A stretch of 55,693 nt of DNA from a virus (Duplodnaviria > Caudoviricetes), in IMG/VR virus record IMGVR_UViG_3300020371_000012, positions 1-55,693 of that record. One strand, given 5' to 3'. Below, piece after piece: positions 38,773 through 53,631 of this stretch; the stretch's first letter is position 1; each line of letters starts with the position of its first letter. The position numbers and the translations under genes are program-made. A model generated the notes under the pieces. That model did no database searches, was not told the DNA's origin, and worked only from the letters and a program-made list of their open reading frames with translations.

Positions 38773-39446
38773 CTGATTACCTAGTTAATTTAAATAGTTC
38801 TGGATCATATTCTGTTGGTGTTGACTACGAAATTCCATCGAAGTCAACTCAGAATACTAACCTAATCATTGATGACATTAATGGTCAATTCAATGGCATT
38901 GGAGTTACATTTTCGTTAAATAGTGGTGGCGATTCATATAGTCCATTAAATGACCAGCAATTGATTGTTTGTAAAAACAATCTGGTCATGGAACCTGGAG
39001 AAGATTTTACTATTGCTGGTGATCAGCTCATTTTCTCAGTTCCACCAATTGCTGGAGATGATGTGTTCATCATCGCTCTTGCAACAACAGCGGATCTAAC
39101 AAGATCTGTTAATTTTGTTATTGATAGTGGATCTCAAGCTATTTCCCCAGGAAGTAAAGGCAAAGTAACTGTCGATGTTTCTGGAACAATTGAGTCTATT
39201 AAAGTATTGAGTGATCAAACTGGAGATATTGTCTTAGAAGTTTCAAAATCCAATTTCCAAGACTTCCCTACGTTCACAACAATCACCAATAACCAAAGAG
39301 TTCAACTACAGTCCCAAAATAAGTACATTGATGATGTACTAAATAACTGGGATAAGACAATAGTTGCTGGTGATATTTTGGATTTCTCAGTAGTCAGTTC
39401 AACAAACATGCGAAGACTGCTGATCTCTTTAAAATTAAAATTATAA
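38769..39446 (+). CDS. Putative virion structural protein (225 aa)
   Basis: IDDINGQFNG...F.L...QQLIV..NN..MEPGEDF module, also seen in the giant proteins. Confidence 0.75.
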   Translation: MTDYLVNLNSSGSYSVGVDYEIPSKSTQNTNLIIDDINGQFNGIGVTFSLNSGGDSYSPLNDQQLIVCKNNLVMEPGEDFTIAGDQLIFSVPPIAGDDVFIIALATTADLTRSVNFVIDSGSQAISPGSKGKVTVDVSGTIESIKVLSDQTGDIVLEVSKSNFQDFPTFTTITNNQRVQLQSQNKYIDDVLNNWDKTIVAGDILDFSVVSSTNMRRLLISLKLKL

Positions 39447-40530: not shown

Positions 40531-40564
40531 GGGGATTGCTTTATAATTGGGCAATCCCTTTTTT
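40531..40564 (+). terminator. Intrinsic terminator
   Basis: GGGGATTGCT-loop-GGCAATCCCT followed by TTTTT. Confidence 0.8.
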
Positions 40565-40587
40565 CATCTAATGAATAGAACTAAACT

Positions 40588-43500
40588 ATGGCCGTTTATG
40601 TCTACGATGAAAATAAGGTAGATGTATTCGTTGCGGAAGATGCAGGTTCGGTAACCGCTTCTGCGACGATAACGGCTGACTATGGCAACATTTCAGACAC
40701 CGCTGACGATGATCGCGGTGCAGACAATTTTAATCCTTGGTATTTTGGTCTAATTACAGACCTTGCTGATGTTCTACCATTTGGCAAGTTGGACGTTGGT
40801 GGAGAAGCAGAACCACTAATTGCTCCACAAGTTCCTGGTGGTGGACTATTCCGTATAGAAGATATTGCAGAAGTATCGTATGTAACCCCCTGGAGAGGGT
40901 CTGGAACCCTCTTCGAGATTGGTGGCGGTCTGGAGAGACTGGTCATCCCAGATTTGGGTGCCGCAGGACCATCTCCGTCCATTTACGGACAAGCCCACGA
41001 ATCCAACACATTCGTTGAAATCGGATCTGGTACACTCGCTCAACTCTCTGACGAAGGAGCGACAGCCAAGTTTAACAGGTATCCCTGGGACGCTTCAGGT
41101 ACTCTTACCCTCAGTGGATACAATTCCACCAGATTTCCAGATGATTTCATTGCGGTCATCAAAAATGTCGCGAAAGTCAAGGGCAAGGCTCATGATCGCG
41201 TCATCTTTGACTATAGTCTGGATCCAGATACTAAGTTTGACGCTGAAAACTACGGATTCGTATTTAATACAGCAGGAGGCAAGTTCTCCGATACTGAAGA
41301 TCTAACCTTTGATAGAATCATCACTAAGAACAAGGATAGATCCTTCAGTGATGATGATCAACTTGCATACGAAGATTACGGTGATATTACCGTATCTACT
41401 CAAGAAAAAGTCCTCCCAGTTGATATTCTGCCAGATGATCTGGCCAACTATGAGGTCTCTTACAGTAGAACATCCATCCTAGACAGTGGTTCTGGAACTG
41501 GTGCTACTGGTGGATTTAACATCGGAAGACATGTTAAGTTCGGTAATGCTGGTGGAGCTAGACAGTTCTATTGGAGATTTGACACTACAGATTCAGAATA
41601 CATCAAATTCACTGCCATTAGAGGTAATGATGTTAATGGTGGTGAAGATCCAGACACTGCTCAGGAAAGTCTATATCTTGATAGATGGACTGGAAGTAGT
41701 TGGATAAGAATTGATACGGTCATTGCATTTAATGACACTTCTTTCAATTCTCTCAAAGAAGTATCTATTCCTCTTACTCCAGCAAACAGAGGAAATTACT
41801 TCTATAGACTTAGACAAGATAATTCAAGTAACAGTGCTCAGTGGGATCATTACGGTATTACTAGTATTACCTATGATCTCAGACAAACCTTCCCAATTGA
41901 TACCGAAGATGGTGGATTCATTGAGAGGAAACTGGGTGGTGGACTCTTTATGCACGATTACCAGGCAACTGGTATCAGGGCTCAAGAGGCAATTCCATTT
42001 GCATATCTTGGTCTTGGATCTCTATTCTCTCTTGGAGAACTCGATCCAGAGAAAGATGTCGATCAGGTATTTGCATATGCAGGTTCTGGTGGATTCAATG
42101 TTACTGGAGAGAACTTCTTCAGTCAGGCTCCACAGAGTACAATCTTCGGTGAAGAAGGCGAATTCTCCTTCGGTGGATCTGCTACAGAAGCATTTGTACC
42201 TGCAACTGTTGATAATACTGTACTGTTCAATCAGGTTGGATCTGCTGATGATAAGGTCATCTGGCAGGCTGGTGAACGTAAGGTTACCATCAGACCAATT
42301 GGATTTGGTTCTGTACTTCTTTCCGATACTCCACCAACGAATACGGCAACTCTATCCGTATCTGGTGCTGCAACAAATATCGAAAGAACATTTGCGGATG
42401 GCAATGTAAATCTATTCGATATCGGTGGAGATGCTGGCAATCCACTGGATTCGAGATTTACTCCACACTTCAGATCTGCTAGAGGAGACATTATCCTCCC
42501 AGATGAAGATTGGGGTCTCATTACCAACTCGGCTACTGAGTTTGAAGATTGGGGTTATATCAGAGAAGTTGCAACCACTTCTCTCGTATTTGGAGATATT
42601 CTTTCTCCATTCAATTATATTCAAATTGGTGGTCAACATTATCCAAGTACAGATACATTCTCTGTTGGGGAGTCGTCTCTCACCAAACAGACACTTGGAT
42701 TTACAGGTATTGCAACCTTCAGACTATCCGAAGATTCCAGTCAGGAAAGAACATTCGATTACGAATCTTCAGGTATTACTGGTATTGCTACCTACAAGGC
42801 TGGTATCAATATCTTTGGTTACAACTGGTTCAGTCAGGCTCCACAGAGTACAGTATTCGGCCTTGAAGGAGAACTTACTCTTAGTGGTTCTGCAGGTGAG
42901 TCGATCACTCCATTCATTGAACCTCAAGGAACTGATGGTAACTTCAGATTCCTCACTGGATCTGCCGAAATTGTTCGTGATTCGATCACAAGAGCAGTTG
43001 CACCTGAACTACTTGGTGATGTTTATATTGGTGGAACTGCTGATATTGGATTCAGTCCTGCTGTCACTGGTGTTGGTATTGCCACACTCCGTACAGGTAG
43101 AGAAGAATTCCAGACATATCTCAGAATCATTGATCCTGATATGGATCTGGTCCTCACCACAATTGGCGGTGGACTTATCAATGAGGACTTTGTTAAGAGC
43201 TACAATGAGTCTTCCATCTACTATGGTCCTCAGGATGAGGATTATGGATCAATTCTCAGTGCAGCTGCATATGGGATGGGTCTCAACTTCTCTGGTACTG
43301 CATCTAATGTCGAAACCTTTGATGATGAGACTAATACTTATGACCAAGATGTACTCTTCAGTAACAACGGTCTAACTTACGACCAGAGCACTGGCGGAAA
43401 CACTGTTCTCCCAAGTTTCGACAAAACAGATTCGTTCCCTGTCAACTTCTCAACTACTGTTGTATCTGAAGATCTTGGTAGTATCAACGAAGGTATTCCA

Positions 43501-45717
43501 ATCCCAGGTGGTAAGGCATACGATCAATATCTATTCCCATATTATACTGGATTTGTTGATCAAGATATTGACCAAGGTTACGATGACTTTGGATTCATCA
43601 ATGCTACTACTGACTCGGTAACAAGAGTACCTTACGGTACATATGAGTTTGAACAACCCAGACCACTGGCGAAGACCATGTGGATTCCCAAGTGGAATGG
43701 TTCTGGTACTATTGTTCCTTCTGGTACTGCAAACGAAAGATTTGTTACCTCAGACGGCAACACTGTTCTCTTCGATTTTGTTGGAACAACTTCACCAGAG
43801 AAGTTTATTGCTCAGACTCCAGAAGATACAGTTCTTCTCACCTTCGCTGGTGCAGCCGAAGACGAATCGGTCACCTTCAGCGAAGTTGGAATTGGAACCG
43901 CATACTTCTCTGGTGCGGGTGTCGAGAGTGTCAGATTTGTCGAAATCGGAACTGGAATTCTTTCCTTCTCTGGTGCGGCAGTCGAGAGATCCACTATGGA
44001 TCCACCAGAAGGAACATACCTCCACATATTCAGTGGAGCCGATGTTCGTCCTGGACTTACTTTTGCTGCGGAGACAACAAAGGCAACTCAACGTCTGTAT
44101 GGGGAACTCAATCACCCACAGATCGACTTTACTCCACATTATGGTATCGACAGAAATATCGGTATCGAAACTGGTATTACTCTCAAACCTGGAAGTTCTC
44201 CTGGAGAATACGGCAATCCTGGTATTGTTACTACAAGATTTGTTCCAAAATACACTGGTGGTCCTGGTGTTGGAACAGACGGAGTTCTCCTCTTCAGTGG
44301 CAGGGCTATTGGTCGTACCAATGCACCAATCTTTACCGATGGTACAATTTACATCCTCGGTGTTCACACCGCGGCTCAAGGAATCAGTTCTGGAAGAGAG
44401 ACTGGTCTTGTCGAGAGTTTCACTCCTGGAACAATATTTGGTGGTCCTGGTCAAGTTACCTTCAAAGGTATTTCTCCAACTCGTCCAATTCAGGTCTTTG
44501 GTTATTATGGAGACGACAGAGATCCTGGTGCTGGTACATCTGGAGTTATCACAATCAATCCTTCCCAAACGGGAATCGAAATCAGATCTCTCAAAGATTA
44601 TATTGGTGTTGGAACTGCATACTTCTCTGGAGGATATTCCGATCTCTCTGCGACATTCAGCGAAATTGGAACAGGAGAACTCTTCAAGTTCTCTGCTCTA
44701 TACGAAAGAAGAACCTTCGATTATGTTGGTTCTGGTACACTTACTGCATCTGGAACAACAGATGCTCCAAGTACCTTCCAGACTCCAGACAATACAGTTC
44801 TATTCACAGTTTCTGGAGAGGCACAAAAACGTGCCTCCCTCAAGGACGACATGGGTGGAACGATTTCCATCTACAATACGGAAAGAGTTGTTACTGGAAT
44901 TACTCTTTCCATTGCAACTGGAGGCACATTCAGTTTCTTCTCCAGTGGTGCAGAATCTATTGTTATTCCTTCGGAGACCACTACGGCTCTCTTCGATATC
45001 GAAGGAATTGCCGATACCAGAGAAATTCAGGTCTACGGTTACTACGGAGATGATAGAGATCCTGGTACATCTGGAACTATCACAATTGTTGGTGAACTCA
45101 CTCACCCACAGATCGACTTCACTCCTGCCGAGACTGGATTTGGAGATCTCACTTTCGTTGGCGAATCTATCGTCAAGGTCGATCTCAAGATCGTCGGAAA
45201 AGGAACTCTTCCACTATCTGGTACTGCAACGGAGAAATTCGTCAGTGCCGCGGGCGAAGATACGATTCTCTTCTCCATCGATGGGGACGGAGAAACTGCT
45301 CTCAATTCTGTATATGGTTACTACGGAGACGACAAGGATCCTGGTACATCTGGTCAGGCTACATTCTCTGGAATCGGAGATACCAGAAAGATTACCGTAT
45401 ACGGATACTACGGAGACGACAAGGATCCTGGTACATCGGGAACATTTACATTCTCGAACACTCCACTTGTTCATCCAGAAGTCGATTACACTCCACACTA
45501 TACAGCCAGAGGAGTTATCAACTTCACTGGCGGCGTTTCTGTCAAGAGAACTTTCCCAGAGGTTGTTGGTTCTGGATCGCTCTTCGGATTTGGAACAAAA
45601 GACGAAGCGTATGCGAGAACAACATACGTCGGTATCGGTGTTGCAGGGTTCTTCGGAGCTGCATTTACAGAGACAGTTGCATTTGAACCATCTCGCGTAT
45701 ACGTTACTATCATTTAA
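40588..45717 (+). CDS. Large acidic, Gly/Thr-rich virion (fibre-like) protein, 1709 aa
   Basis: Long ORF in the tail region with ED[YW]G repeats, GSG.L.F.G repeats and 4 x GYYGDD[RK]DPG..TSG. Confidence 0.85.
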   Translation: MAVYVYDENKVDVFVAEDAGSVTASATITADYGNISDTADDDRGADNFNPWYFGLITDLADVLPFGKLDVGGEAEPLIAPQVPGGGLFRIEDIAEVSYVTPWRGSGTLFEIGGGLERLVIPDLGAAGPSPSIYGQAHESNTFVEIGSGTLAQLSDEGATAKFNRYPWDASGTLTLSGYNSTRFPDDFIAVIKNVAKVKGKAHDRVIFDYSLDPDTKFDAENYGFVFNTAGGKFSDTEDLTFDRIITKNKDRSFSDDDQLAYEDYGDITVSTQEKVLPVDILPDDLANYEVSYSRTSILDSGSGTGATGGFNIGRHVKFGNAGGARQFYWRFDTTDSEYIKFTAIRGNDVNGGEDPDTAQESLYLDRWTGSSWIRIDTVIAFNDTSFNSLKEVSIPLTPANRGNYFYRLRQDNSSNSAQWDHYGITSITYDLRQTFPIDTEDGGFIERKLGGGLFMHDYQATGIRAQEAIPFAYLGLGSLFSLGELDPEKDVDQVFAYAGSGGFNVTGENFFSQAPQSTIFGEEGEFSFGGSATEAFVPATVDNTVLFNQVGSADDKVIWQAGERKVTIRPIGFGSVLLSDTPPTNTATLSVSGAATNIERTFADGNVNLFDIGGDAGNPLDSRFTPHFRSARGDIILPDEDWGLITNSATEFEDWGYIREVATTSLVFGDILSPFNYIQIGGQHYPSTDTFSVGESSLTKQTLGFTGIATFRLSEDSSQERTFDYESSGITGIATYKAGINIFGYNWFSQAPQSTVFGLEGELTLSGSAGESITPFIEPQGTDGNFRFLTGSAEIVRDSITRAVAPELLGDVYIGGTADIGFSPAVTGVGIATLRTGREEFQTYLRIIDPDMDLVLTTIGGGLINEDFVKSYNESSIYYGPQDEDYGSILSAAAYGMGLNFSGTASNVETFDDETNTYDQDVLFSNNGLTYDQSTGGNTVLPSFDKTDSFPVNFSTTVVSEDLGSINEGIPIPGGKAYDQYLFPYYTGFVDQDIDQGYDDFGFINATTDSVTRVPYGTYEFEQPRPLAKTMWIPKWNGSGTIVPSGTANERFVTSDGNTVLFDFVGTTSPEKFIAQTPEDTVLLTFAGAAEDESVTFSEVGIGTAYFSGAGVESVRFVEIGTGILSFSGAAVERSTMDPPEGTYLHIFSGADVRPGLTFAAETTKATQRLYGELNHPQIDFTPHYGIDRNIGIETGITLKPGSSPGEYGNPGIVTTRFVPKYTGGPGVGTDGVLLFSGRAIGRTNAPIFTDGTIYILGVHTAAQGISSGRETGLVESFTPGTIFGGPGQVTFKGISPTRPIQVFGYYGDDRDPGAGTSGVITINPSQTGIEIRSLKDYIGVGTAYFSGGYSDLSATFSEIGTGELFKFSALYERRTFDYVGSGTLTASGTTDAPSTFQTPDNTVLFTVSGEAQKRASLKDDMGGTISIYNTERVVTGITLSIATGGTFSFFSSGAESIVIPSETTTALFDIEGIADTREIQVYGYYGDDRDPGTSGTITIVGELTHPQIDFTPAETGFGDLTFVGESIVKVDLKIVGKGTLPLSGTATEKFVSAAGEDTILFSIDGDGETALNSVYGYYGDDKDPGTSGQATFSGIGDTRKITVYGYYGDDKDPGTSGTFTFSNTPLVHPEVDYTPHYTARGVINFTGGVSVKRTFPEVVGSGSLFGFGTKDEAYARTTYVGIGVAGFFGAAFTETVAFEPSRVYVTII
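43653..45053 (+). other. Candidate overprinted -1-frame ORF (466 open codons, GTG at 43680, ends TGA-TAG)
   Basis: The ORF track shows 43680..45053 and 43643..45751 overlapping the main ORF, so all three + frames are open. Upstream, -1-frame stops are frequent. Confidence 0.45.
44491..45441 (+). repeat. Four dispersed copies of a GYYGDD(R/K)DPG(AG)TSG-encoding repeat
   Basis: Copies at about 44491-44544, 45028-45075, 45310-45354 and 45397-45441. Confidence 0.85.
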
Positions 45718-45720
45718 CTT

Positions 45721-45728
45721 TATAAATA
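45721..45728 (+). promoter_or_regulatory. T4-type late promoter
   Basis: TATAAATA upstream of ATG 45762. Confidence 0.8.
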
Positions 45729-45761
45729 ACTCAGAAGCATACCTTTCATAAGTTCTGATTC

Positions 45762-46220
45762 ATGACAAAGCAGGTTCAATTTAGAAAGGGAACTACAGCT
45801 GAACACTTTAACTTCACTGGAGCCCTTGCTGAAATTACTGTTGATACGGATAAAAATGTTGCTGTTGTTCATGATGGTGTAACTCCTGGTGGTTTTGAAC
45901 TTTCAAAATCAAGATGGACTTACGTTGCAGGCGATACTACAACTGGTACTAACCAAAAGTATACCGTTGATTCTACGTATAGTCCAACAGGATTAAACGT
46001 TACCCTACCAACACCTCGTGCAGTTGGTGACTGGGTTTGGATTGAAGACTTTGGTAATTTTATGAGTATCAATCCAGTAAACATCATTTCAGATCAATCT
46101 TTTGAGAATGGTCATCTCGTTAGAGAAAGCTCACCCTTTATTATGGATGTATCTGGAGCTTCCGTAACATTCATTTGGAATGGAAGCCTTTGGAAAGTGT
46201 TCAACAATAGAGGCAGTTAA
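45762..46220 (+). CDS. Tail-fibre-associated protein with Mtd/hyaluronidase-type N-terminal domain
   Basis: QVQFRKGTTAEH..FTGALAEITVDTDK.VAVVHDGVTPGGF; its C-terminal module resembles the end of the 1479-aa protein. Confidence 0.75.
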   Translation: MTKQVQFRKGTTAEHFNFTGALAEITVDTDKNVAVVHDGVTPGGFELSKSRWTYVAGDTTTGTNQKYTVDSTYSPTGLNVTLPTPRAVGDWVWIEDFGNFMSINPVNIISDQSFENGHLVRESSPFIMDVSGASVTFIWNGSLWKVFNNRGS

Positions 46221-52772: not shown

Positions 52773-53570
52773 ATGGCTAATTACTCATCATATAAACAGA
52801 TTAGCAACTCTCAAATTGTTGACGGGTCTATTACAAACACCCAGTTACAACAGGGAGCTTTCTCAAACTGGAATGTTAAATGGATCTATGGTGATCCACA
52901 GGCAATGACATCTGGTTGTTGCTGTAATTGGACAGTACCTTCTGGAGTCCAAAGAGTTTATTGGGAACTCTGGGGTGCTGGAGGAAACGGACACGGAACG
53001 TGTTCTTGCAGAAGATGTTATAACTGGCATGGTGCAGGCGGTGGATTCTATAACGCAAAATCAATGGGCGTTACTGCTGGAAATAGTTACACTGTTTGTG
53101 CAGGTGGCGTTTATCGTTGTTGTTCTAGAGACTGTGTTGGATGTAGGGGATGTAGTTCTTACGTAAACGGATCTGGACTATCCAACTTCTGTGCTGCTGG
53201 TGGAACAAGAGGTTGTGCAACCAACTCTTGGTCTTCTACTTGTTACTCTGCATTTATGGACTGCTGCGTTCAACCAGGAGCTTGGGGTGGAGACTTTGCA
53301 ATGGGTAACCACGCTGGTGGTACTAGAAAAGGATTTGGTGGTGCTGGTTGGAACTGTCACTGCTACTACAACGAAAGTCTACCTACAGGTGCTCCATTCA
53401 TGGGTACTATGGGTGTCAACTCTGCTGTTAGACACTGCTGGGTTCGTTGCGGTTGCTGGAGAGTTCCTTACGCACATGGTGGTCAGGGCGCAGTTACATC
53501 TTACTGTGAAAGATGCTGTGGACAAGGTGGAACAGGTGGTAGTGGTGTTGTTAAAATCAGCTACATGTGA
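52773..53570 (+). CDS. Cys/Gly-rich putative tail-fibre tip protein, paralog 3
   Basis: Colinear with paralogs 1 and 2; ~25 Cys in 265 aa; preceded by GATAAATA (52745) and ATTAAATA (52756). Confidence 0.8.
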   Translation: MANYSSYKQISNSQIVDGSITNTQLQQGAFSNWNVKWIYGDPQAMTSGCCCNWTVPSGVQRVYWELWGAGGNGHGTCSCRRCYNWHGAGGGFYNAKSMGVTAGNSYTVCAGGVYRCCSRDCVGCRGCSSYVNGSGLSNFCAAGGTRGCATNSWSSTCYSAFMDCCVQPGAWGGDFAMGNHAGGTRKGFGGAGWNCHCYYNESLPTGAPFMGTMGVNSAVRHCWVRCGCWRVPYAHGGQGAVTSYCERCCGQGGTGGSGVVKISYM

Positions 53571-53589
53571 TCCATCATTGGTATTATCC

Positions 53590-53614
53590 AGACCCCGAAA
53601 GGGGTCTTTTTTTT
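53590..53614 (+). terminator. Intrinsic terminator
   Basis: AGACCCC-GAAA-GGGGTCT followed by a T run. Confidence 0.9.
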
Positions 53615-53623
53615 ATGTTTTTT

Positions 53624-53631
53624 TATAAATA
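53624..53631 (+). promoter_or_regulatory. T4-type late promoter
   Basis: TATAAATA just after the terminator, upstream of ATG 53669. Confidence 0.8.

Follow-up and report, generated by a model that had tools for sequence, protein, structure and literature searches.

We analyzed a stretch of 55,693 nucleotides of viral DNA (hereafter the window, meaning the whole stretch, i.e., positions 1 to 55,693 of IMG/VR record IMGVR_UViG_3300020371_000012; Duplodnaviria, Caudoviricetes), which is a contig of a T4-like cyanophage, and observe that one structural gene in it, encoding a protein of 1709 amino acids (the main gene, read in the main frame), is depleted of stop codons in both alternative reading frames of its sense strand across the C-terminal domain. 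This depletion is stop-specific, sense-strand-specific and gene-specific, and selection keeps the alternative frames stop-free, region by region, without constraining the sequence that they encode. A preliminary description of the window, made from the sequence alone, had proposed that the −1 frame of this gene carries an overprinted protein of 457 amino acids. As a discrete protein defined by its own sequence, this product is poorly supported by our comparisons, and we consider that the open reading frame (ORF) is probably a local read-out of selection within one gene, which clears stops from both alternative sense frames so that ribosomes that have slipped would not be released within the C-terminal domain.

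Off-frame stop codons are depleted in a single gene

A stop codon in the −1 frame requires a T at the third position of a main-frame codon and a following codon that starts with AA, AG or GA, and we class codons of the latter kind as susceptible. The main gene contains 100 −1 stops in its first 1021 codons (the N-terminal part) versus 4 in its last 688 codons (the C-terminal part), and the +1 stops in the same two parts number 13 and 0. Using a null model in which synonymous codons were permuted 1000 times within the last 688 codons, i.e., with the protein and the codon counts of the region kept, we obtained 52.4 ± 4.7 −1 stops (minimum 37; z about −10 for the observed count) and a longest −1 open run of 50 ± 13 codons (maximum 127) versus the 466 codons observed, and none of the 1000 shuffles reached either the observed stop count or the observed run length. 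The shuffles gave 5.6 ± 1.5 stops in the +1 frame, where none is observed, and two control genes conformed to their own synonymous shuffles. The −1 open run thus exceeds what the composition and codon usage of the gene predict, and the frequency of off-frame stops deviates about ten-fold from the expectation set by protein and codon usage, for stop trinucleotides only.

The preference against T is seen where a stop would result. Within the C-terminal part, T precedes susceptible codons at 4 of 141 positions, versus a frequency of 0.48 before other codons, and in the N-terminal part at 99 of 278 positions, versus 0.46 before other codons. Separated by trinucleotide, T is found before AA in 0 of 33, before AG in 1 of 31 and before GA in 3 of 77 cases in the C-terminal part, with the non-stop controls standing at 65 of 99 for GG, 35 of 90 for AC and 20 of 52 for AT. 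Susceptible codons are themselves somewhat fewer in the C-terminal than in the N-terminal part (0.20 versus 0.27 of codons). Examination of the opposite strand demonstrated that stop density is normal in antisense frames as1 and as2 and low in the third (as0), at 0.7 per 100 codons, owing to the avoidance of TTA and CTA codons; an antisense ORF at 43792..44568 (258 amino acids) was rejected as a by-product of this avoidance.

The openness of the +1 frame, which was missing from the preliminary description, includes an ORF that starts with ATG and encodes 702 amino acids (43643..45751). In the C-terminal part, a codon of the form NTG is followed by A in 0 of 20 cases, versus 124 of 307 in six other large genes, and all 8 NTA codons have T as the next base. 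The combined share of TTA and TTG among Leu codons is 0% in the C-terminal part, 3% in the N-terminal part and 36% in other genes, and that of CTC is 59% in the C-terminal part versus 8% in other genes; TTA and TTG have been dropped although the related isolate S-SSM7 has a gene for tRNA-Leu(UUA). The clearing of stops is achieved by context-dependent synonymous choice, with third bases other than T placed before AA, AG and GA, and with NTA and NTG used only where the next base is safe. The depletion also shapes the protein itself, through avoidance of Met followed by a codon starting with A, the only kind of residue pair that makes a +1 stop unavoidable: such pairs occur in 1 of 58 cases in the C-terminal parts of the family and in 6 of 67 in the N-terminal parts, versus 27 of 76 in other genes, with the caveat that the family sequences are related and their counts not independent.

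Further biases at codon borders were observed in the same gene. T before codons starting with TT (T_TTN) occurs in 6 of 73 and 6 of 46 cases (8% and 13%), versus 253 of 782 (32%) in other genes; A before codons starting with AA stands at 13% versus 28% in the N-terminal part; and the gene avoids short homopolymer runs across codon borders.

Our survey of the other genes showed the depletion to be confined to this one. Among 19 other ORFs of the window, T precedes susceptible codons at the background frequency of 0.36 to 0.53, and +1 stops occur at 2.7 to 7.6 per 100 codons, except for one small gene at 0.8; the depleted gene has 0.8 over its whole length. As a whole-genome control we used the 155 ORFs of at least 150 codons in S-SSM7, where the homolog of the main gene, SSSM7_110, is the sole outlier. 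Its −1 frame stays open for up to 398 codons (next longest in the genome, 68) and its +1 frame for up to 1257 codons (next, 199), and the ratio of T before susceptible codons to T before other codons is 0.43, versus a median of 0.95.

Table 1. Coordinates of features in and around the main gene (positions of the window)
Feature	Position	Strand	Details
Main gene, 1709 amino acids	40588..45717	+	Structural gene of the cyanomyovirus baseplate/tail-fibre module; homolog of SSSM7_110 and Sf-FS3 gene 93
−1-frame open run, 466 codons	43653..45050	+	Stop-free; the ORF of the preliminary description without its start
GTG, proposed −1 start	43680..43682	+	Made by atG TGg of a Met-Trp pair
Last two upstream −1 stops	43644..43652	+	taT GAg at 43644-43646, ttT GAa at 43650-43652
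Tandem −1 stops, TGA (45051-45053) and TAG (45054-45056)	45051..45056	+	From GAT GAT AGA in the repeat copy 45043-45062
Next −1 stop, ggT GAa	45093..45095	+	Besides this and the tandem pair, one more in the last 688 codons, at 45684-45686
Four in-frame copies of the YGYYGDD(R/K)DP repeat	44506..45428	+	At 44506, 45043, 45322 and 45409
+1 frame, 698 open codons	43622..45748	+	After the stop at 43619-43621, closed by TAA at 45749-45751, which lies 34 nt beyond the main stop
Another, smaller island lacking −1 stops, 106 codons	42546..42863	+	In the N-terminal part; matches the family-depleted bins at codons 600-749
Terminator-like hairpin and T run	40531..40565	+	22 nt upstream of the main-gene ATG
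TATAAATA	45721..45728	+	Directly 3' of the main stop, before the next gene (ATG at 45762)

The depletion across the gene family

Our scan of viral contigs yielded 73 loci, and together with three isolates these provided 46 homologous genes with a complete 3' end (loci of the scan are numbered with the prefix L). Depletion was found in 43 of the 46, which have 0 to 26 −1 stops per approximately 135 susceptible sites in the C-terminal stretch of approximately 690 codons, with T at 0.44 to 0.52 elsewhere, and 0 to 6 +1 stops. Across the 44 depleted genes, i.e., these 43 and that of the window, the longest −1 open runs range from 174 to 715 codons, with borders that differ between clades; for example, the run is about 700 codons in L045 and approximately 600 to 660 codons in many genes resembling that of S-SSM7. 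The three most distant genes (32 to 35% identity) are undepleted, with −1 stops at 44 of 166 (L003), 51 of 146 (L075) and 52 of 144 (L076) susceptible sites. Among the isolates, the homologs in S-SSM7 (SSSM7_110, 46% amino-acid identity to the main protein) and Sf-FS3 (gene 93, 83%) are depleted too, with their stops at different positions, and that in S-SCSM2R (gene 111, 30%) is not (44 of 166).

When 36 distinct genes of the family were binned along their length, the +1 frame was seen to be cleared from approximately codon 450 to the end, and the −1 frame at codons of approximately 600 to 750 and 1100 to 1650, with the window cleared at codons 1022 to 1488. In the last 60 codons of these genes, T before susceptible codons returns to 0.20 to 0.29. 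Between codons 1100 and 1649, T precedes AA in 5%, AG in 4% and GA in 5% of cases, versus 72% for GG and 43% for AC, and 34 of 56 conserved susceptible sites never have T. Since representatives of the clades differ from one another at 29 to 58% of four-fold degenerate sites, which puts synonymous divergence close to saturation, the depletion is maintained and not passively inherited.

These comparisons bear on the explanation that a Gly/Thr/Ser-rich gene with codons ending in T and C yields open frames through composition, codon bias or chance, to which we give almost no credence. In its favor are the lower number of susceptible codons in the C-terminal part and the Trp/Arg/Cys make-up of the −1 product, which does follow from the main-frame codons of a Gly/Thr-rich gene, as the preliminary description had already cautioned. 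Openness of the frame, unlike this composition, is not automatic in such a gene: no synonymous shuffle reproduced it, T stands before GG in 66 to 72% of cases versus 4 to 5% before GA, the distant homologs L003, L075 and L076 encode similar proteins and are undepleted, and the effect is absent from the other genes of the window and of S-SSM7.

A constraint on the RNA, or another that does not involve translation, could also remove the trinucleotides UAA, UAG and UGA, e.g., through avoidance of a binding factor, a nuclease or a promoter-like element. The effect is strand-specific and present in all three phases of the sense strand, as such a constraint would have it, and TAA is part of TATAAATA, which we take to be the T4-type late promoter consensus and which in the window is found only before gene starts. 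This motif has 4 copies in the window (20491, 39442, 45721 and 53624), all on the + strand and all just upstream of gene starts; the total is no higher than chance (4 versus 3.4 expected), and the placement is consistent with T4-type late promoters. We regard a constraint of this kind as improbable. Depletion of UAA, UAG and UGA without UGG is exactly the specificity of the release factors, and we know of no nuclease or binding protein with that specificity; moreover, the adjacent late genes are undepleted, and avoidance of a promoter would spare TGA and TAG.

Population data were drawn from contigs assembled from three DNA runs and one RNA run, which are approximately 1% diverged from the window and which show neither strand, RNA ends nor rare variants. 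We checked 39 of the 40 substitutions listed (with 16 more beyond these), and none makes an off-frame stop. All 7 third-position changes before susceptible codons are to A, C or G, never to T, and the 5 changes to T all lie before safe codons. No indels relative to the window were seen in the contigs of the four runs. The contig from the RNA library covers 44922-45337, and the frame in use cannot be read from it.

Candidate products of the alternative frames

The −1 ORF of 457 amino acids is present exactly as the preliminary description gave it (43680..45053 in the list of ORFs, with its translation), from the GTG to the tandem TGA-TAG, and the sequence contrasts cited in its favor are also correct. 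Of the four copies of TAYGGNGAYGAYARRGAYCC, only that at 45043 has GAT GAT AGA, with GAC GAC AGA/AAG at 44506, 45322 and 45409, so that three copies of the YGYYGDD(R/K)DP repeat escape −1 stops via GAC GAC; likewise, GGT GAA CTC (45090) contrasts with GGG GAA CTC (44100). What is not supported is the reading of these features as a discrete protein with a defined start and a defined end.

With regard to the end, conservation of the stop position, which had been suggested as a check, gave a divided result. All 8 of the closest relatives (81 to 83% identity in the C-terminal part) share with the window the −1 stops at codons 1488, 1489 and 1502 (45051, 45054 and 45093), whereas codons 1488 and 1489 are open in more distant relatives, where the run ends near codon 1670. 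At that point T is at neutral frequency before the codons concerned (16 of 34, 15 of 28, 14 of 36 and 15 of 24), which means that stops are not enriched there in the way expected of a selected end point. In addition, the same 8 close relatives all have 6 to 20 extra −1 stops inside the equivalent of 43653-45050, and their longest runs are 174 to 250 codons.

The start fares no better. The Met-Trp pair that makes the GTG at 43680 is absent in Sf-FS3 and S-SSM7, and the only other ATG, GTG or TTG in the −1 frame of the run is a GTG at 43692-43694 (aaG TGg, Lys-Trp). In this frame a start codon can arise only where the main frame has a Trp or Cys codon, and these hardly occur; 36 of the 47 longest −1 open runs of the family contain no ATG, GTG or TTG at all. 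Entry by programmed slippage found no signal: neither a conserved slippery heptamer (X_XXY_YYZ) nor a homopolymer of at least 6 was found near run starts in the family, in agreement with the remark of the preliminary description that no canonical heptamer is visible. In-frame heptamers occur in the window gene only at codons 122 and 1655, no heptamer is conserved in the range of codons 1000 to 1100, and its C-terminal part has no homopolymer of at least 6.

The encoded sequence also appears to be free to vary. Reduced synonymous-site variation over the open region was not found in 18 pairs of genes, as measured by raw counts at four-fold sites with no codon model. For example, between the window and L007 the four-fold divergence is 0.263 in the C-terminal versus 0.245 in the N-terminal part, with amino-acid differences of 0.163 versus 0.144. 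As four-fold divergence does not drop over the open region, the amino acids encoded in the −1 frame are not under constraint; and since the third position of a main-frame codon is the first position of the −1 codon and the second of the +1 codon, the alternative products evolve freely except for the avoidance of stops. Searches of the −1 and +1 products against Pfam and PHROGs returned no family, the −1 product against the ESM Atlas gave a best value of 0.82 (recognition 1500), which is below the lead level, and the alternative translations found nothing in the window or in the S-SSM7 genome other than their own locus.

Compared with overprinted viral genes, the system described here has in common a long alternative-frame ORF within a structural gene, an odd composition and a significant absence of stops; unlike them, its synonymous divergence is not lowered, its start is not conserved and a start codon is usually missing altogether, stops break up the ORF in the closest relatives, and both alternative frames are open together. 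Programmed −1 frameshifting, as in the tail assembly chaperone G/GT of lambda and in 10A/10B of T7, offers a second comparison, in that a −1 frame reached from the main frame would give the same N-terminus with another tail. The lambda and T7 cases have a conserved slippery heptamer and an extension past the main stop; unlike them, the main gene has no conserved heptamer, its −1 frame closes short of the main stop, and the sequence of the tail is unconstrained.

A broader form of this idea is that real trans-frame or overlapping products are made, with the −1 frame entered by frameshifting and the +1 frame by frameshifting or internal ATGs, to give isoforms whose N-terminal part is normal and whose tail is rich in Trp/Arg/Cys or in Leu/Ser. 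Such tails would function through their length and composition, and the version in the window would be the 457-amino-acid ORF or a fusion of approximately 1490 amino acids. Several observations fit. L045, L027, L028, L021 and L038 have no stop over 600 to 700 −1 codons, as an all-or-none constraint would produce; run borders recur in the S-SSM7-like clade, with stops at codons 1056/1066 and 1669-1671; the −1 and +1 frames of the window open within 33 nt of each other (43622 and 43653), and the only two −1 starts lie 27 and 39 nt into the run; and the depletion is strong enough to mould the protein sequence. We nevertheless consider such products unlikely, given the unconstrained synonymous sites, the lack of start codons in most runs, the lack of a conserved heptamer or homopolymer and of a family match for either product, the interruption of the ORF in 8 of 8 closest relatives and the neutral frequency of T at the border stops. 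The position of the +1 stop, counted from the main stop, varies between −11 and +52 nt, which also speaks against such products; this variation and the conserved TATAAATA in the intergenic stretch make it unlikely, too, that translation is coupled to the next gene.

It is also conceivable, though improbable, that the C-terminal domain is built for translation in three frames, where slips of some ribosomes at non-canonical sites would give fibres with Trp/Arg/Cys-rich (−1) or Leu/Ser-rich (+1) tails, which would function as minor parts of the virion, e.g., as sticky or membrane-active tips.

Open frames might instead serve evolvability, by letting frameshifts or compensating indels create new receptor-binding segments without truncation. 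The protein does evolve fast (amino-acid difference of 0.16 versus 0.26 at four-fold sites between the window and L007), the alignments contain many indels, and three distant pairs have paired gaps that are not multiples of 3 within 20 to 30 nt, possibly through alignment noise. We judge this explanation very improbable. When the +1 and −1 translations of 47 genes were compared with the 47 main proteins by blastp, there were 0 matches at E ≤ 1e-3, and no frame-switched match was found elsewhere in the window or in the S-SSM7 genome; gaps are all multiples of 3 in 17 of 20 pairwise nucleotide alignments, and the copies within each of the 13 internal DNA repeat families lie in phase, at spacings divisible by 3, which disposes of out-of-frame internal repeats. 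No indel variants were seen in the four runs, and second-order selection would need to hold approximately 140 sites.

A proposed role for slipped ribosomes, the locus and implications

The preferred explanation remains that selection clears stops from both alternative sense frames because of what happens to ribosomes that slip. The lack of −1 starts and the release-factor specificity of the signal together indicate that the relevant readers of the −1 frame would be ribosomes that left the main frame by slipping, and the selected outcome would be that these run on to within approximately 50 codons of the normal end. As to why this should be favored, we tentatively suggest, as a speculation and the weakest step of the argument, that prematurely released subunits of a multimeric virion protein are harmful, in contrast to those with a long nonsense tail. 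Truncation could leave a subunit competent for assembly yet non-functional, and a long nonsense tail would render the product non-assembling or degradable. The extra-strong avoidance of T_TTN in the same gene would fit selection against premature ends or slippage.

A number of points weigh against this explanation. The benefit of avoiding truncation is not obvious, in that a nonsense-tailed subunit lacks the true C terminus as well, and that slipped ribosomes are the readers is itself something we infer. Zero stops over 130 to 140 susceptible sites in several lineages make an all-or-none constraint on an ORF likelier than a small cost per site; for example, L045 has T at 0 of 140 sites, and L027 and L028 have zero −1 stops until codon 1669, which speaks for the competing explanation by real trans-frame products. 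The homologs are phylogenetically related, such that the sequence counts are not independent events, and the depletion is patchy, with borders that vary by lineage in a way that none of the models considered here predicts. The adjoining giant structural genes are undepleted, which means that the cause must be peculiar to this protein. Finally, no copy of TATAAATA belongs to the main gene itself, the closest lying at 39442, and the hairpin that precedes it (Table 1) is an 11-bp stem-loop followed by TTTTTT (−16.1 kcal/mol, z −3.3), with TATAAT within the loop. The gene may be expressed by read-through at a reduced level, and because a terminator-like hairpin and the lack of a late-promoter motif make its expression possibly weak, selection on translation errors would be weaker.

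A published framework for comparison is the ambush hypothesis of hidden, off-frame stop codons (e.g., PMC3700767, PMC5909447, PMC2996987). Off-frame stops are usually treated there as weakly favored ambushes for slipped ribosomes, and the debate is about weak genome-wide enrichments. Selection on off-frame stops through synonymous codon choice and the proposed involvement of slipped ribosomes are shared with the case presented here; unlike in that hypothesis, stops are removed and not enriched, in one gene, about ten-fold and in specific regions. Among the titles and abstract openings returned by full-text literature searches we found no description of such a depletion.

With regard to the locus, Synechococcus phage Sf-FS3 is the nearest isolate, 85% identical at the nucleotide level across 43000-46000, and the gene order is the same as in S-SSM7, i.e., gp25, gp6, gp7, a structural protein, a second gp7-like giant, gp8, a 2509-amino-acid protein, two small structural genes, the 1709-amino-acid gene, a tail protein with an Mtd N domain, a small gene and then a 1479-amino-acid fibre-like protein. 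All three isolate homologs lie in the same gene neighborhood and are annotated as ‘hypothetical protein’ or ‘TolB’, none with an annotated overlapping gene. The main protein has only a weak match in PHROGs (PHROG 11522, unknown function), no Pfam family match, and nothing below E 0.29 in sequence and profile searches of the PDB. For its C-terminal part, the ESM Atlas gave no usable match, and an AlphaFold2 model of the 688 residues from a 34-sequence alignment was unusable (predicted local distance difference test score, pLDDT, 25.9). The TATAAATA at 45721 is kept in most of the 29 homolog junctions listed, and three distant junctions read TACTAAAT or TTAAAAGT.

Residues of approximately 278 to 429 of the main protein (41420-41875, approximately 150 residues) are absent from Sf-FS3, S-SSM7 and S-SCSM2R and match parts of proteins annotated as baseplate wedge subunit/initiator in many other cyanomyoviruses (38 to 41% identity); judging from these matches, the segment is a module inserted into the gene of this lineage, and the density of off-frame stops within it is normal. 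Elsewhere in the window, the gene at 52773..53570 has merely 2 +1-frame stops in 265 codons, and a +1-frame ORF of 145 amino acids (53191..53628) extends 58 nt beyond its end; the overlapping pair equivalent to 52773-53628 is annotated in S-SSM7 as SSSM7_116/117, and the ORF may be a genuine small overlapping gene. At least 9 studies from 2014 to 2025 have marine or seawater metagenome runs that contain sequence near-identical to 43600-45800 (70 to 98% of sampled 31-mers), and the phage lineage of the window is widespread and persistent.

Annotation of the family is also affected. In S-SSM7 (88146-88246, L002), SSSM7_110 is annotated from a GTG that probably lies downstream of the true start, with many homologs reading LTVFVYDNTK from a likely upstream TTG start; and because there is no in-frame ATG until 89563, a caller that accepts only ATG-initiated ORFs takes a +1 ORF of 1236 codons over the true SSSM7_110. 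Long alternative-frame ORFs of this gene family will mislead gene callers.

The depletion reverses the ambush view, in that one gene of approximately 155 is cleared about ten-fold of stops in both sense frames over 600 to 1250 codons, and its cause can be tested in culturable pairs of phage and host, namely S-SSM7 on Synechococcus WH8109 and Sf-FS3 on WH8102. If slipped ribosomes are the cause, this gene family would be a clear natural case of strong selection on the fate of frameshifted products. Should the cause lie in hidden trans-frame products, it would represent a new route to tail-protein diversification in phages, and if translation in three frames proved to be true, it would be a form of translational diversification of a receptor-binding protein that needs open frames and composition, not conserved sequence.

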